Shown here: in pieces, positions 39,001 through 45,000 of the stretch | Numbering within the stretch: position 1 is the stretch's first letter | How the letters are laid out: every line of letters begins with the position of its first letter | Assembly (NCBI GenBank): GCA_039024555.1 | Contig: JBCCQQ010000006.1 | Span: forward strand, 32,001-96,000 | Length of the DNA: 64,000 nucleotides | Origin: Cyanobacteria bacterium P01_D01_bin.156 | Lineage (GTDB): Bacteria > Cyanobacteriota > Cyanobacteriia > Phormidesmidales > Phormidesmidaceae | Direction of reading: 5' to 3' | Program-made: the position numbers

Positions 39001-42000
39001 CAGCAGGCTACGATACAACTCAGGTAAATGGTGCCGATGCCGCTGGAGATGAGTTTGAGCTTAGCCAAGAAAATGGTCGAGCAATTTTCAATCGTCTGAA
39101 CCTGGGGCTGTTTACGCTGACTAACAAAAGTATTGAACAGTTTGAGATTAACGGCCAGGGTGGCGATGATTCTTTAGCAGTAGGCGACCTGACCGACAGT
39201 GGCGTGCAAAAAGTCATCTTCTCAGGTGGCGAAGGTAATGATACGTTAGATGCCCGAGAAAGCACCACGACGATTGAAGTCTTTGGTGGTGATGGCGATG
39301 ACCTACTACTGGGGGGCTCAGCTGAAGATACCTTTTTTGCTGGAGCTGGTAATGATATTGTTGTGGGCCAGCGCGGTAACGATACCGCAGACTTAGGGGA
39401 TGGTGACGACCGCTTTATCTGGAATAACGGTGACGGCAGCGACTTTATCAATGGTGCAGATGGGTTTGATGTGACCCAGGTGAATGGTGCCGATGGTCCT
39501 GGCGATGAGTTTGACCTAAGCCAGGTGGATGGTCAGGCTATTTTTAATCGTCTCAATCTAGGATTGTTTACCCTTACTAACGAGGGTATTGAACAGTTTG
39601 AGATCAATGGCCAGGGTGGGAATGATTCGCTTACCATCAACGATCTGACCGGTAGTGACGTCCAGTCCGTACTCTTCTCCGGCGGCGATGGCAATGATTT
39701 CTTAAATGCTAGCGGTACATTTACTCCAGTTACTGCTGATGGTGGCGATGGCAATGATATTCTCATCGGTGGTGCCGGTGACGATATTCTGATTGGTGGT
39801 AATGGGTCCGACTTACTCATTGGGGGTGCCGGTAACAACATTCTGATCGGTGGCAATGGGGCTGATTTCTTTGGCTTTGATACCGGTGCTGTCTTTGATG
39901 CCGATGATATTGGCACGAATCAGATCCAAAACTATGAAGCTATCGACACCATTGTGCTGGATCTTACTGTCTTTGCTCAGTTAACCAGTGCCGTGGGGGG
40001 TGCCCTATCTGCCAGTGAGTTTGCAGTGGTCAATAGCGCCGAAGAAGCGGCTCTCAGTGATGCTCTAATTATCTACGGTGCCGATACCGGAAACCTCTAC
40101 TACAACGCCAATGGTGGTGAAGAGGGCTTTGGTAACGGTGCTCACTTTGCCACCATTGAAGGTGCACCCACCTTGGATGCCAATAGCTTTGTTATTCAGG
40201 CGTAGTTGTTGCTGATTATCCAGTTAAACAGCAAACCCCAAGCAGGTCAATGCGCTTAAGGCATCATTCTGTTTGGGGCTTGCCGTTGTGTAAGAATTTC
40301 ATCGGATTTTTTAAGGTGAATTTTCACCTGGCAGAATTTAATCTTGCTATCCTAGGGGTGACTTCAGGCATTAATGCTGTGGAGAAAGGAGATACTGACG
40401 TTGAGCGATCGCAACTCAATTCGGAACAAAACTCGTCGGCAGTTTCTAGCAACCAGCGCCACCACGGCCTTGGGACTGATCGGCGGCTCTACAAGTCAGC
40501 AGCCATCTGCACCTACCGTATCGAGCAATTCGTCTTCGCCTGATACGTCTGCAGCCAATGCGTCGCTAACAACACCGACTACAATGCCGCAGCGGCAACT
40601 GGGGCGTACCCAAGTAGAGTTGCCAATCTTGGGTTTGGGCGGAGCCGGGCGCACGCCACTATCCACCCCTAATCAAGAGCAAGCCGCCACAGAACAGATT
40701 CAACGGGCACTAGAGCTGGGCATTCGTTACTTTGATACAGCCGCAAGCTACGGGCCAAGTGAGCAGTATTTAGGTAACGTGTTGCCCCCCTATCGAAACG
40801 AGCTTTTTCTAGCCACCAAGACAGCCTCCCTCAATTATGACGGTGCTTGGCGCGATTTAGAGCGCTCATTGCGTCGGCTAAATACCGATTATCTCGACCT
40901 TTGGCAGCTGCACCATATTTCCTTTGAGTCTGAGCTGGATACATTGCTCAGTAATGACGGCGCGATCAAAGCATTAGAAGAAGCCAAAGCCCAAGGACTG
41001 GTGCGCTTTAGTGGGATCACGGGTCACCATGAACCCCAGGTAATTGCCACAGCTCTACAGCGCTACCCGTTTGACCATACGTTGATTCCCGTCAACGCAG
41101 CGGATACCCACCATCCTCGACCGTTTATTCCCGTTGTGTTGCCTGTGGCTCAGGCGCAAAATGTTGGAGTAACGGCGATGAAGGTGCCCGCCTATGGTCG
41201 GTTATTAAAACCAGGTGTGCTGGATGGCATGCACCAAGCGTTGGGTTACACATTGTCGCAGTCTGGAGTGCACTGTGCGGTTATTGCTGCCCAAACCATT
41301 GCCCAGTTAGAAGAAAATGTAAAAGCCGCTTCGGAATTTGAAATTCTGGATGAGACGACCCTGGCCAATATTGAGCAGAAAACAGCCGCTGTTTGGCAAG
41401 ACAACACATTCTTTAGAGCCTGGACTTGAAACATTTGTAGAGGCTGCCTTTACAGCCCTATTCAAAATCTTTGCTGGAGCAATGCTCCGATGTCAGAACT
41501 ACTGGAAGTGGGCTAAAATTTCGGCAAGTCCTCGCTGAGATACTACGCTATGACCTCATCTGGTAAGCCTCAACCCAAGCAACCAGCCAGTGAGCAATTA
41601 GCAGACATGGTTCTTAAGGTGGTCAGAACTGGCGGGATTGCTGGTGGTGGCATTGGTGCGTTTTGGCAGCTGTTTCTAAATAGCGATATCCCAAAGGCAA
41701 TTGCATCATTGGTAATCGGTGCTGGCCTTTCCTATGGTGCTAAGTTGTTGATGCCCGTCCATAAAGGAAATGAGAAACGGGCGGAACAGGCTGGAAAAGC
41801 TATCAATGAAGGCATTGATCAAGTCTTTGACCAGATTACTAACCAGGTGATTGCGGCAGCAACTGGGTTTGAGAATAAGTACTTGCTGTGTCAGGCGGCA
41901 GAATGTCAGGCGTTTCGTTCTGAGGGCATGGCCCAGCATGATGGCATTTTTATTCCGCTATTGACGGAAGTATTTGTGCCGTTGGAGCTAGACTCTAGCG

Positions 42001-45000
42001 CTATGCAAGCAGGCTTTCACTCGCTAATGCTGGATAGAAATCAAACAAGCCAACGGGAGCTAACTATTTGGACCTTTTTAGCCCAGGCACAAAAGACACC
42101 CACATTTCGTCAGCTAGCCATTCTAGCTTGGGGTGGCTACGGTAAGACCACGCTGTTGCGGCACATTGCTTTTCGCTACGGCACTAAACAGATTCCTAAA
42201 GGAGCACCAAAGTTCATCCCTGTCCTACTGATCCTCAGACAGTATAAGGATTTACTCGCTCAGGATAATCCTCCTGACTTACCACAGTTCATCACTGACC
42301 ATCACCTACCAGATTTGCCCGGTGCCGATAATCTAAAACCACCCAAGGATTGGGCATTGAACCTTCTCAAAAGTGGTCGAGCATTGGTAATGTTGGACGG
42401 CTTTGATGAAGTTGGTACAGATCAGCGTTCAAACGTGGCTAAATGGTTAACGGCTCAAATGCGCCGCTATGGTCAGGCAGTCTTTTTGCTCACATCTCGT
42501 CCCAAAGCTTATAGAGAACAAAAAGCAGGCGCAAGGTTGCAGTTAAGTACATCCCTGTGGGTAAGAGACTTTAATGAGTTACAGAGAAAACAGTTTGTTA
42601 CCCGTTGGTATGAGTGCCAAGAACGTTATGCCAATGCTGGGCGAGAAACCCCAGATGTCAAAAAAACAGCAGATCGTGCATCCCAAAATTTACTTGCACA
42701 AATTGAATCTCAGCAGGCTCTGAAGGATTTGGCAAAAAATCCTTTGTTGCTCAATATGATTGTCACCTTCCATCGCCGGGTGCCAGGTGCGGAACTACCT
42801 AAGCGCAAGGTAGAACTGTATCGAGAAATTTGTCAGCTGCAGTTACTAGACCGCCCTAGAGCTCGTGGTGTAGGGCCTTTGATGACCCAGTACAATGCCC
42901 AGGGGATTTTGCAACAGATTGCCTTTGCCATGATGCAGCGCCAGTGGAAAAGGATTGACCAAAAGGTATTACTGCAAGGGTTAAGTCAAATTATTAAACA
43001 ACAAGACGATCAGTTTTCGGCTAAGGATTTTTTGAAGGAAGTGGTGCAAATTAGTGAGCTGCTAGTAAAGCAAGAAGACCAATATGAATTTGCTCACCTA
43101 AGTTTTCAAGAGTATTTAGCGGCGGCCCATATTGCCCAGACTAGAAAGGAACAGGTACTGTATTCGCAGTTTGACAATGATTGGTGGAAGCCAACAATTT
43201 TACTCTATGCGGGGATAGTAAGTCCAACACAGTTGATGCGAGAGGCCGTTAATCAGGGAGCAACGGATCTGGCTTATCAGTGTTTACAGGAGACGACGAA
43301 GCAGGTGGATGCCTCCCTGGCAGCTGAGCTGAAAACTGTTAAGGCAGTTGTAGTAGATGCTCGCTATGCGAACTTAGAAACGTATTTGAAAAATGGCGAG
43401 TGGGAAAAGGCAGATAATGAAACCTATCGACTGATGATCACTACCGTTGGCAAAGAAGAGAACCAGTTCTTTGAAAACGAAGAACTACTCGAATTTCCCT
43501 GTGAGGAGCTAAAGACTATTGATCAGTTGTGGGTCACCCACAGTAAGGGCAAGTATGGTTTTAGCATACAAAAGAAAATTTATTTAAGCGTTGGTGGTGT
43601 AGCCGATGGCACATATAATGATGAGGCCCATAAACAATTTTGCGATTTAGTGGCTTGGCGAAAGGACGGTTCTTACAGGTTCGAAGATATATTGATGGAT
43701 GGAAGGGGGCCTCACGGACATCTCCCTCGCCCGGTCGTTCCCAGGTTTTGGTTTATAGATCTTATGGGGGTGCTTGGGGGGGGGGTTTGGTTTTTTTTGT
43801 CTCTTCTCTCGCATCGAGACTTGTAGACTGTAACAGATAAGCGCTACAGCCCGATCTAAACTTTCTTAAACACAGTCTCTACATACCAATCCTCGTTGTT
43901 TCGTCAATTCGTTACCTGGTACCCTGCTAGCTCTCTTGCCAGGTCTGGGTTATAGGCATTGGCCATCAAAAAACGTTCCGTGATATTCTGAATTTCCTCC
44001 ATAGGAGCATCCCATTCTTGCCATAGAGATTTTTGACCAGGGCTAACTTTTTTCTTGGGCTTACCCTTCAATTTCATCCTTGCTAGCAATGTATTTCCCC
44101 AGTAATTTCGCTTTTCTGGCTTTGGCCTTGGTCGATACCGCTCACAAAATTTACGATATATCGTTGCACAGATTTCCAAGGTCGCTCCCAATGCCATAAA
44201 TGCCAGGTGCCATTCGGTAATACCATCCTGGGTCAACCGTTCATAGGTTCCATAATTGCTGAAATCATAGAAAAAGCCCTGCTGCATATTGGCAGCCTTT
44301 GGGTTCCCATGGATATAGCGAATCGTATTCAATGCTCTTCGAGTATCGCTCATCTCAAAGCCGCTGCTGTGATACCGCTTTTCCCAAAAGTGCCCTGTCC
44401 GGTTCAACATTCGGTTAAAACACATGGCACTATACCAGTTCAGCCAGTGCATAATTTTCGGTAACTCTTCTGGCTGCTGCGGCTTTAACAAATAATGGAC
44501 ATGATTGCTCATAATGCACAGAGCATAGAGCCTGAAACCATATTTTTCTCGGCACTTTTGAAGTGCATATAACAATACAGAACGACATTCATACCGCGTC
44601 AATCGAAACTCTCGATTATTGCATCGTATTGTTACGTGACAACAAAGATTAGGACGTAAGTCCCTCAGTTTACGGGCCATTGAAAGAGCACATTGCTTTA
44701 CGCTCTGCTTGTTTCTATCATATAAATCCTAATGGTGACACTATCACCTGTCTACAACTTTGACATAAAGTAATTCATCAAAGAAATGTTGCCTGTGTGC
44801 ATTTAAGACTCTCATTATTTTGAGGGAGTATGATTTCAAAATCTGTTGTTCCACTTTCTGCTGAATTCACAGTTAATGTGCCTGCATGTTTTCGAATAAT
44901 GGAATAGCTTACAAATAACCCAAGCCCTTTCCCCTGACCCACTGGTTTTGTTGTAAAGAAAGGCTCAAAGATTTGCTTCTGAAGTTGTTCTGGAATAACA

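Follow-up and report, generated by a model that had tools for sequence, protein, structure and literature searches.

A hypervariable, G/T-rich segment in cyanobacterial GUN4 receptor genes: a probable reverse transcriptase-free diversity generator associated with a Y1/HUH enzyme

Introduction

Why a gene for a small transposase-like enzyme should lie tail-to-tail behind a gene for a NACHT protein ending in a GUN4 domain is the question raised by a locus of Cyanobacteria bacterium P01_D01_bin.156. The window, a stretch of 64,000 nucleotides from contig JBCCQQ010000006.1 (positions 32,001 to 96,000), carries one such pair, which a survey of the whole genome had read as an obligate two-gene conflict module. 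The features concerned are as follows, with positions counted along the window.

41550..43826, + strand: NACHT-GUN4 gene, 758 aa (ORF and Pfam)
42135..42611, + strand: NACHT domain, aa 196-354 (Pfam PF05729, E 5.9e-15)
aa 603-727 of the NACHT-GUN4 protein, + strand: GUN4 domain (Pfam)
43356..43727, + strand: constant part of the GUN4 domain, last codons GHLP (43716-43727)
43728..43799, + strand: variable segment, 72 nt (28 G, 29 T, 5 A, 10 C)
43800..43835, + strand: conserved DNA tract, starting TC|TCTTCTCTCGC
43800..43923, + strand: fixed-length cis element of about 125 nt, from tract to box (conserved spacing)
43913..43922, + strand: TACCTGGYAC box, overlapping the 3' end of the Y1 ORF
43904..44680, - strand: Y1/HUH tyrosine transposase-like gene, Y1_Tnp, 258 aa (Pfam, motifs, fold match)

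Results

The convergent arrangement described by the survey was recovered in the window, the two reading frames being separated by 77 nt. The genome holds three full Y1 copies, as reported, the other two being 82% and 66% identical to the window copy, and the NACHT-GUN4 proteins beside the three are likewise of low identity (35-38%). A spacer length of about 75-100 nt holds for the window pair but not for the pair on contig C21 (113 nt), and the GGTRCCAGGTA motif noted in the spacer proved to be the reverse complement of the TACCTGGYAC box; its overlap with the end of the Y1 reading frame, noted for some copies, is true of the window locus. The supposed fourth pair, a TIR-GUN4 gene with a RAYT on contig C60, was not confirmed: the sequence behind the TIR-GUN4 gene is a 3' remnant of the window's Y1 family, and the intact C60 gene is a true RAYT (178 bits against a cutoff of 80) flanked by REP-like hairpins. 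An additional NACHT-GUN4 gene of the same genome, on contig C121, has neither tract nor Y1.

Seen from the enzyme, the association with GUN4 stands. Among the best 80 of 408 Y1 relatives, 5 of which lie on loci that are too short, a convergent GUN4 gene was found at 74 of the 75 sufficiently long loci, the sole exception (L078) facing a protease gene with a box and a decayed tract. Seen from GUN4, the pairing is not obligate: for 60 non-canonical GUN4 genes chosen by Pfam alone, independently of Y1, the enzyme gene is intact at 7, partial at 8 and absent at 45, and in one genus the tract occurs in 62 of 79 genomes and Y1 in 12 of 79. Y1 adjoins 15 of the 28 tract-bearing fusions and none of the 32 tract-less ones. 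The survey's finding is in this respect partly confirmed, in that Y1 and GUN4 form a conserved two-gene module with one-way pairing. Copies number 1-6 per genome and always face the same few gene classes.

That the enzyme is an intact, domesticated HUH protein holds at the sequence level, with His60, His62 and Tyr122 invariant in 53 of 53 proteins and the motifs NHVH, FWEKRY, YIHxNP and DFSNY invariant or nearly so. Judged by motifs against the table in PMC6006769, as opposed to that paper's profiles, it would belong to TnpA_Y1 class 2, subclass 2.1 (RAYT group 1), for which the available text lists NHVH, WE, Y---NP, a serine-bearing C-terminal extension and a length of about 238 aa, together with a C-terminal helix-turn-helix (Bac_DnaA_C, HTH_23/28) or terminal inverted repeats (TIRYT). 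Pfam returned Y1_Tnp only; the structure model has a disordered linker followed by two predicted C-terminal helices, shows no second catalytic domain, and has TnpA_REP (4ER8, E 4.5e-7) as its best fold match. According to PMC8266576, the site cut by TnpA_REP is C|T, the enzyme becomes bonded to the T and any 3'-OH can serve as attacker, and the HUH plus tyrosine core and a C|T at the putative cut are shared with TnpA_REP/RAYT and IS200/IS605 TnpA proteins as presented there and in PMC6006769. However, Y1 falls below the NCBIfam cutoff for RAYTs (NF047646, 61.3 bits against 80), and GTAG-footed REP hairpins do not flank it, since upstream DNA is unconserved across the loci compared and the element folds no better than shuffles. 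The IS200/IS605 TnpA profile is not reached either (22.7 bits against a cutoff of 55), the motif is YIHxNP instead of Y---Q, and the copies are only 66-82% identical; the loci show no left end and the element no fold. Neighbourhoods of these loci hold no recurrent polymerase gene, no third gene and no TnpB, and PADLOC has no match for Y1.

A hypervariable segment and a conserved DNA tract lie within the GUN4 gene, both missed by the survey. Among 330 alleles, 283 distinct segments of 19-198 nt were found, with a composition (%) of G42 T31 A16 C11 and a G/T bias at all codon positions; fourfold third positions have G44 T31 in the segment versus G19 T23 in the GUN4 body. Of the genome's 13.2 million overlapping 72-nt stretches (both strands), no more than 887 are as rich in G+T as the window's own segment. 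On the left, the constant part ends at CC, because the wobble base of the GHLP proline is already G/T-biased across loci. The right border is sharp at C|T regardless of frame, with T at the equivalent of 43802 in 280 of 283 alleles and a preceding C in 199, which points to a nick site between 43801 and 43802.

The segments leave in all three frames (96:86:101), and the tract encodes a short helix at the C terminus with a stop in every frame, at codon 8, 10 or 12-15; whatever the frame, the tail closes the protein, and therefore any segment length works. In-frame stops account for 7 of 5583 codons, while the two other frames have 230 of 5487 and 255 of 5401, indicating that alleles with in-frame stops are purged and the frame is kept open. 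Read in frame 0, the tail gives the ancestral GUN4 helix, whose LLxHPAW is present in 30 of 30 canonical GUN4 proteins, so the tract arose inside GUN4. The box lies 112 nt on from the C|T border, at an offset of 114 or 115 in 129 of 134 box-bearing loci, and the lack of a stable fold reported by the survey is borne out by the mean folding z scores of the two strands (+0.25 and +0.21).

Wholesale exchange of the segment was observed between near-identical loci (L100/L167, L130/L200, L097/L157, L245/L251), and a shared 11-nt segment end is absent in 888 of 891 related pairs. The first 30 nt of the tract are copied inside 9 of 283 segments (shuffles 0-1), and the left flank inside 10 of 283 (shuffles 0-2). 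No alternative allele was seen in the likely source read set, in which contigs carry one dominant allele and break inside the segment at 43789, and two assemblies of one cultured strain with intact Y1 (L083/L126) differ by a single base only.

The modelled GUN4 domain aligns to 4XKB (Z 20.6, rmsd 1.9, 137 residues), the variable segment taking the place of the equivalents of residues 209-219 of Synechocystis GUN4, including Arg214 and Arg217. Arg214 is essential for porphyrin binding according to the sections of PMC1084334 available, and the residues after GHLP, Arg214 included, are invariant in 30 of 30 canonical GUN4 proteins. The fusions share fold, GHLP motif and frame-0 terminal helix with canonical GUN4 as described there, but their Arg214/Arg217 segment is randomised: the canonical motif and both arginines are found in none of 283, and an arginine at +6 in 16, the window copy among them. 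The heads are interchangeable, as claimed, comprising NACHT, caspase, TIR, kinase and MoxR-system proteins; a truncated FGE-sulfatase lectin domain precedes GUN4 in 3 of 36 partners, and GUN4 stands at the end of an iSTAND-MoxR locus. The window protein, with an N-terminal hydrophobic region, a NACHT NTPase and the C-terminal GUN4-fold domain with its randomised pocket segment, has the NACHT module and C-terminal sensor of the bacterial NACHT (NLR-related) anti-phage class of 10.1101/2022.07.19.500537.

The same box recurs at loci where relatives of Y1 face precursors of cyanobactins or genes of the prochlorosin type; it follows 16 of 20 cyanobactin precursors at a distance of 142-143 nt. At L489, three tandem precursors, each of which keeps the element without a Y1 of its own, have leaders identical at 90 of 90 positions, elements identical at 153-154 of 154 and unrelated cores, one core being a broken product with an out-of-frame 97-nt insert (G36 T31 A18 C12). 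Picocyanobacterial variable regions lack the bias (G26 T25 A27 C22). In a quick tree the Y1 clades track target class (SH-aLRT cyanobactin 98, picocyanobacterial 100), and diversification seems to act on peptide natural-product genes too. With the TnpA_REP/procA pairs of Laurenceau et al. (10.1101/2020.03.09.984088) the present loci share the enzyme family (homologues 42-47% identical), convergence, conserved distance and intergenic DNA, 3' remnants and C-terminal diversity, and the hairpin described there was found together with the box in the loci gathered here; in contrast, the window's target is GUN4, not a procA lanthipeptide precursor, and elements of the window type have no fold. That paper proposed a diversifying role for lanthipeptides only, later hedged as lacking strong evidence for causality, and stated that the closest cyanobacterial relatives do not adjoin lanthipeptide genes; neither GUN4 nor cyanobactins are named as targets in its text, which also has no mention of the box, the C|T border, inserts with a G/T bias or the three-frame tail. 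Anacyclamide and piricyclamide cores are hypervariable (7-17 residues, one conserved proline), and a 'transposase' is noted between sphE and sphF (PMC3428304, PMC6162287); the sections of these papers available give neither a mechanism for the cores nor a role for the transposase.

Discussion

These observations are probably best explained by a reverse transcriptase-free diversity generator driven by the domesticated Y1/HUH enzyme. The enzyme would recognise the box and tract lying past its own gene and, by analogy with TnpA_REP, nick the facing gene's sense strand at C|T, its tyrosine holding the 5' end of the tract. The free 3' end would lose the old segment as far as the last indispensable base, the CC of the GHLP proline, gain 20-200 nt of new G/T-rich DNA, untemplated or slippage-templated (host polymerase, captured oligonucleotides or the enzyme itself being candidate sources), and be rejoined to the tyrosine-held end. 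Rewriting would be episodic, with the allele mostly freezing once the enzyme gene decays. Among locus pairs, which are non-independent, with left-flank identity of 85-99.9%, those with intact Y1 comprise 0 with the same segment and 46 with different ones, and those without it 49 and 377, which speaks for this reading; dependence on Y1 is nevertheless thinly tested, because only a single intact-Y1 pair has flank identity of at least 95%. Points against the reading are the single dominant allele of the source contigs, the one-base difference between L083 and L126, the lack of a recurrent polymerase gene and of a second catalytic domain in the Y1 model, the unbiased picocyanobacterial variable regions and the later hedging by Laurenceau et al. 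What results is a GUN4 fold whose pocket segment is randomised, carried by NACHT, caspase, TIR, kinase or MoxR-system proteins and presumably serving as a variable receptor with a ligand-binding and defence role; sister enzymes would act likewise on peptide-precursor cores. In V(D)J recombination a domesticated transposase (RAG) makes the cut and N-nucleotide addition (TdT) gives an untemplated, G-rich junction of variable length in a binding loop; the likeness is an analogy only, there being here one site, a proposed single-strand chemistry and no gene segments.

An unlikely alternative is a selfish one-ended element of IS91/ISCR-like geometry that inserts into gene 3' ends, with a conserved end downstream of the enzyme gene and none upstream, the three-frame tail letting the host gene survive and the segment being a junction scar whose diversity is a by-product. 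The unconserved upstream DNA, the frequent decay of Y1 genes and the reassortment of tract, spacer and Y1 against the GUN4 body (L022/L028: Y1 96%, spacer 93%, GUN4 58%; Mantel rho only 0.34) would fit such an element, whereas the low copy number, the restricted target classes, the birth of the tract inside GUN4, its retention by tandem precursors without their own Y1, and segment change at unchanged flanks would not.

It is improbable that the segment is a hotspot of host recombination or repair (paralogue gene conversion through the tract, a Chi/RecBCD-type process, or one driven by G-quadruplexes or R-loops) under selection for open, hydrophobic loops, with Y1 a hitchhiker. In its favour, Y1 is missing at most tract loci, and a Chi-site model for prochlorosins is cited in 10.1101/2020.03.09.984088. 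The closest pair, L100/L167, has changed its segment yet has neither box nor adjacent Y1, a case that the diversity generator can accommodate only through action in trans or gene conversion. At flank identity of at least 95%, 8 of 45 pairs without intact Y1 still differ. Conversion, however, moves existing alleles, yet the 330 alleles include 283 distinct ones and no donor was found, exact matches to the genome's four segments being at most 12-15 nt (shuffles 12-16). The bias, moreover, is present at fourfold sites and in the broken, unselected product, one box at a fixed distance serves three target classes that share only Y1, and tract-less fusions never adjoin the enzyme.

The survey's own model, in which a HUH nuclease effector is switched on by GUN4 sensing tetrapyrrole imbalance during phage infection, is very improbable. 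The heads are typical of conflict systems, the C-terminal part of the PADLOC PD-T4-6 profile gives a partial match to the GUN4 region, and chlorophyll-precursor sensing by GUN4 fusions has been predicted (PMC7159879, in the part available; 10.1101/2022.07.19.500537). Against this, the porphyrin-binding arginines are randomised, and the genes are convergent, not operonic. Y1 is dispensable at most fusions and its relatives with the same box face peptide genes that lack NTPase and GUN4, which fits a DNA diversifier acting in cis, not a protein partner.

That a remote reverse transcriptase does the rewriting, as in diversity-generating retroelements (DGRs) or another RNA-templated system, is largely refuted: the heads are those of cyanobacterial DGR targets with C-terminal variable regions (PMC7517822, PMC10907252, sections available) and the composition is A-poor, but RVT_1 (PF00078) has no match in this 99%-complete genome (control search positive in 3 of 14 genomes), no template repeat was found by exact matching, length varies freely and every position changes.

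The diversity generator favoured here works like a DGR without being one. GUN4 in these fusions occupies the slot of the DGR-varied lectin domain, and the available text on DGRs acting on FGS/C-type-lectin domains (PMC7517822, PMC7159879, PMC10907252) describes the same variable C-terminal binding domain, head types, adjacent enzyme gene and remote enzyme-less targets; in contrast, the present system has no reverse transcriptase or template repeat, changes length freely, replaces all four bases and uses GUN4, not a lectin fold. Cyanobacterial GUN4 fusions, hitherto read as chlorophyll-precursor sensors, are thereby recast as variable receptors, a parallel to lectin domains varied by DGRs.

More broadly, and tentatively, cyanobacteria could possess a programmable junctional-diversity system, in which one small HUH enzyme, directed by a portable 80-150-nt DNA element, would cut at a single base and have random G/T-rich sequence inserted there. 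Antibody-like variable loops would arise in this way on NLR-type receptors, as would the hypervariable cores of cyanobactin and prochlorosin peptides. Two questions are joined here, namely how anacyclamide, piricyclamide and prochlorosin cores vary at fixed flanks and what subclass 2.1 Y1 enzymes do, and the analysis supplies a base-level candidate cut site, a shared putative recognition box and a mutable predicted catalytic residue. If active, the two parts would make a useful tool for randomising loops or peptides in vivo. If true, targeted diversification of this form would differ from DGRs, inversion, conversion and integrons alike, and the origin of the peptide cores would be explained.

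Pairing of GUN4 fusion genes with Y1

The gene pair in the window comprises two reading frames arranged tail to tail.

Genes of the pair (window coordinates)
41550-43826, + strand, NACHT-GUN4 ORF, 758 aa
43904-44680, - strand, Y1_Tnp ORF (Y1, an HUH tyrosine transposase-like gene), 258 aa, tail to tail with the NACHT-GUN4 ORF

Two further NACHT-GUN4/Y1 pairs, a TIR-GUN4 gene, a NACHT-GUN4 gene without Y1 and a canonical GUN4 gene are present in the same genome. The survey's finding had been that GUN4 fusions and Y1 are obligate partners. Viewed from the Y1 side the pairing is established and, for close relatives, all but universal: a convergent GUN4 gene is present in 74 of the 75 loci that were long enough among the best 80 of 408. 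From the GUN4 side the claim does not hold: when the 60 top-ranking non-canonical GUN4 genes of a Pfam search over 61 genomes were taken, contig-end genes being skipped, seven were accompanied by a full Y1, eight by a partial Y1 and 45 by none. Neither does the TIR-GUN4 gene on contig C60 constitute a fourth pair, as had been claimed, for what lies behind it is only a 3' remnant from the same Y1 family, and its intact neighbour is an unrelated, true REP-associated tyrosine transposase (RAYT). At this locus (L003:224-1025) the RAYT, situated amid REP-like hairpins, has displaced most of a GUN4-type Y1 gene, of which the last ~25 codons remain. A lone Y1-family fragment, covering residues 20-62 with 56% identity, occurs without GUN4 elsewhere in the genome (L006; G000 C37:40116-40244).

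No conserved third gene was found in the 80 loci, Uma2-like genes being the next commonest (10/80), and promoter and terminator scans gave results at chance level. The regions flanking the pair (window 38226-40205 and 44778-50240) encode a repeat-rich calcium-binding-type protein, an aldo-keto reductase and a Ser/Thr-His hybrid kinase, and do not form a defence island. The C-terminal part of the PADLOC profile PD-T4-6 matches the GUN4 region in all four fusions of this genome (E 2e-28 to 7e-37); the term PD-T4-6 was not found in the available part of the main text of PMC9519451, and any role of the module in defence is putative. Neither an association of GUN4 with Y1 enzymes nor a hypervariable GUN4 tail was found described in the literature covered, to which few subscription papers belonged.

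Scanning of 36 partner proteins, picked out of 73 for their varied lengths, revealed that GUN4 is terminal in all of them, behind NACHT (11), caspase (11), TIR (5), kinase (3), KAP (1) or AAA_35 (1) heads, or behind no recognised head (4). In three NACHT proteins (L030, L037 and L067) a truncated FGE-sulfatase domain, a DGR-type lectin, immediately precedes GUN4, as if a GUN4 cassette stood in place of the target of a diversity-generating retroelement (DGR). DGR-varied FGS lectin domains occupy the same slots as GUN4 does in the fusions, according to the available parts of PMC7159879, PMC10907252 and 10.1101/2022.07.19.500537. A plasmid with three Y1 places carries, in the order iSTAND, MoxR, an 827-aa GUN4 protein and Y1, a locus (L347:12001-17904) with a group II intron reverse transcriptase 1 kb beyond.

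A hypervariable segment within GUN4

All four fusion genes in the genome have in common a near-invariant DNA tract (from 43800 in the window), which is read in differing frames and preceded by a G/T-rich stretch of unequal length; both features had been overlooked in the survey. The DNA separating the GHLP codons from the tract yielded 283 distinct segments across 330 loci, which came from four independent collections selected on the basis of Y1, the tract or GUN4. The segments are 19-198 nt long (median 55), with a composition of G42 T31 A16 C11, and leave in the three frames at 96:86:101; 276 are open, in-frame stops accounting for 7 of 5583 codons versus ~4.5% off frame. The G/T bias is equal at every codon position and at fourfold sites (12 of 78 loci not parsed), and hence reflects a bias of input as opposed to amino-acid selection.

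The segment exactly displaces the porphyrin-binding stretch that includes Arg214, while Pro208 is retained (numbering carried over via the canonical motif). According to the available part of PMC1084334, Arg214 is essential to porphyrin binding and Pro208 is required for folding. In the predicted model the GUN4 fold is retained and confidence is low across the segment alone, and any ligand of the altered site is presumptive. Searches for a genomic template for the four segments of this genome returned chance-level matches, no reverse transcriptase was found in the genome, and neither its own genome nor 50,697 phage records yielded a donor for one 148-nt segment of ordinary composition. Tandem GUN4 domains occur at L091, L411 and L425, where the first continues via segment and tail into the second. 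Many of 32 fusions that lack the tract (L387-L440) retain G/V/W-rich loops and decayed RLxxC tails, and are likely to be old frozen products.

Tract, box and putative nick site

The borders of the segment are established. Conservation begins abruptly at a C|T step (43801|43802 in the window), with T in 280 and the preceding C in 199 of 283 segments. The tail is likewise established as a three-frame sequence, the tract closing the protein at 8, 10 or 12-15 codons in the respective frames. All 30 canonical GUN4 proteins examined read GHLPL(S/T)NQLRG...LLxHxAW and have neither tract nor Y1, indicating that frame 0 of the tract is the ancestral GUN4 helix. A tract-only scan of metagenomes gave at least 120 loci; among the matches listed, 104 had GUN4 upstream, three had none and 13 were too short. 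No viral contigs with the tract pattern were found. A TACCTGGYAC box (43913-43922) lies at offset 114-115 in 129 of 134 box-bearing loci, independently of the position of the Y1 stop. The element from tract to box showed no structured RNA or ssDNA (folding z ~+0.2), strong covariation or clear periodicity.

TnpA_REP enzymes, as described in the available part of PMC8266576, cleave single strands at C|T and become bonded to T, the intermediate being resolved by any 3'-OH. A nick at the corresponding C|T is envisaged here, after which the 3' end of the sense strand would be extended with slippage, from a putative source of new bases, and then rejoined. Segments hold partial copies of the tract start or left flank above chance, with one more in the contigs, as would be expected of such a chemistry.

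Turnover of segments

At locus pair L100/L167 the left flank is 99.2% identical over 243 nt and the right 100% over 250, with unrelated segments between them; near-identical loci with unrelated segments are also represented by L130/L200, L097/L157 and L245/L251. Replacement is whole rather than partial, and a common 5' versus 3' part was seen in two versus one of 891 pairs, too few to give a direction. The same segment was found in 0 of 46 non-identical pairs with intact Y1 and in 49 of 426 pairs lacking it (37 of 45 where identity was at least 95%), figures in which the pairs are mutually related and an intact Y1 is present in a single close pair. In one genus (6 of 90 loci not parsed) the tract is present in 62 and Y1 in 12 of 79 genomes, and one allele is common to nine genomes. 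L100 and L167 have neither box nor Y1 despite the changed segment. Two assemblies of one strain have the same segment, and contigs from the likely source run revealed a single allele and no alternative, with an interruption at 43789 for which poly-G/T sequence would be an equally good explanation. Taken together, these data indicate that rewriting is episodic at best, with any present-day activity putative. Two further sequencing runs contained relatives only, and a genus search aimed at near-clonal genomes covered two genomes, neither with a Y1. Two of the four assembly gaps (N-runs) in 74 loci fall inside the segment, in two genomes (L061:2750-2850; L054:7004), which is suggestive only.

The Y1 enzyme

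Residues H60, H62 and Y122 of Y1 are conserved without exception across the 53 proteins aligned, and five of 74 Y1 genes have internal stops. The fold resembles that of TnpA_REP and the motifs of subclass 2.1, as given in the available part of PMC6006769, are present, and Y1 scores under both the RAYT and IS200 cutoffs. A conserved end upstream of Y1 was not found, and a sequence search of solved structures gave no match. Among 401 genomes of the class, 93 have a match to the Y1 profile, and in a quick tree, which has long outgroup branches and from which eight rows were dropped, Y1 clades track target class. Remoter full-length homologues form clusters P0003, P0004 and P0008, one with a member named as Actinomycetes.

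Other target genes of the family

Of 39 further Y1 loci in three genera, 21 are without GUN4, and 14 rows of these (13 places) lie opposite cyanobactin precursors.

Cyanobactin-facing sister Y1 loci
L333-L338, L340, L341, L455-L458, L469, L489

Of 20 FAGDDAE-type precursors, 16 have the box 142-143 nt past the beginning of the follower, again after C|T. In tandem precursors within one genome the cores are unrelated, whereas the leader is kept, as is an element of ~150 nt with the box at its end; at L489 leaders are identical at 90/90 and elements at 153-154/154 positions. The core of one copy at L489 is broken, being an out-of-frame 97-nt insert (G36 T31 A18 C12). This is the GUN4-type composition, in a product on which selection cannot have acted. 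Third positions are 75% G+T in cyanobactin cores versus 43% in leaders. Cyanobactin cores are documented in the available part of PMC3428304, which gives no mechanism, and that of PMC6162287 places a transposase beside a cyanobactin precursor and assigns it no role.

Homologues 42-47% identical, in small genomes that are probably picocyanobacterial, lie opposite Nif11-leader precursors or variable-tailed beta-barrel genes, and 17 of the 19 loci carry the same box, at 19 sites in all; the variable regions there show no G/T bias. The beta-barrel genes (L471-L476, L480-L486), whose variable tail follows an R(D/N)(V/I)RVHD motif, are a fourth target class, absent from the text of preprint 10.1101/2020.03.09.984088. 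That preprint, whose main text names prochlorosin as the only target, reported these enzymes opposite prochlorosin genes and proposed diversifying recombination, with a later note that causality was not established. No published account of Y1 links to cyanobactins or prochlorosins beyond it was found in the literature covered, the preprint and PMC6006769 being judged by their texts. A GUN4-clade Y1 with box also lies opposite a peptide gene that has a double-glycine leader and repeated G-rich blocks (L332).

The box common to these loci is established. C|T-to-box distances of 79-80, 112 and 143 nt hint weakly at helical phasing, a pattern from which SYDG-type precursors (151 nt) depart.

Diversification of this general kind, driven by HUH enzymes, was proposed earlier and has never been demonstrated. 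The GUN4/Y1 module is real and widespread, and is probably best read as a diversity generator that operates without a reverse transcriptase and would be driven by its HUH enzyme.
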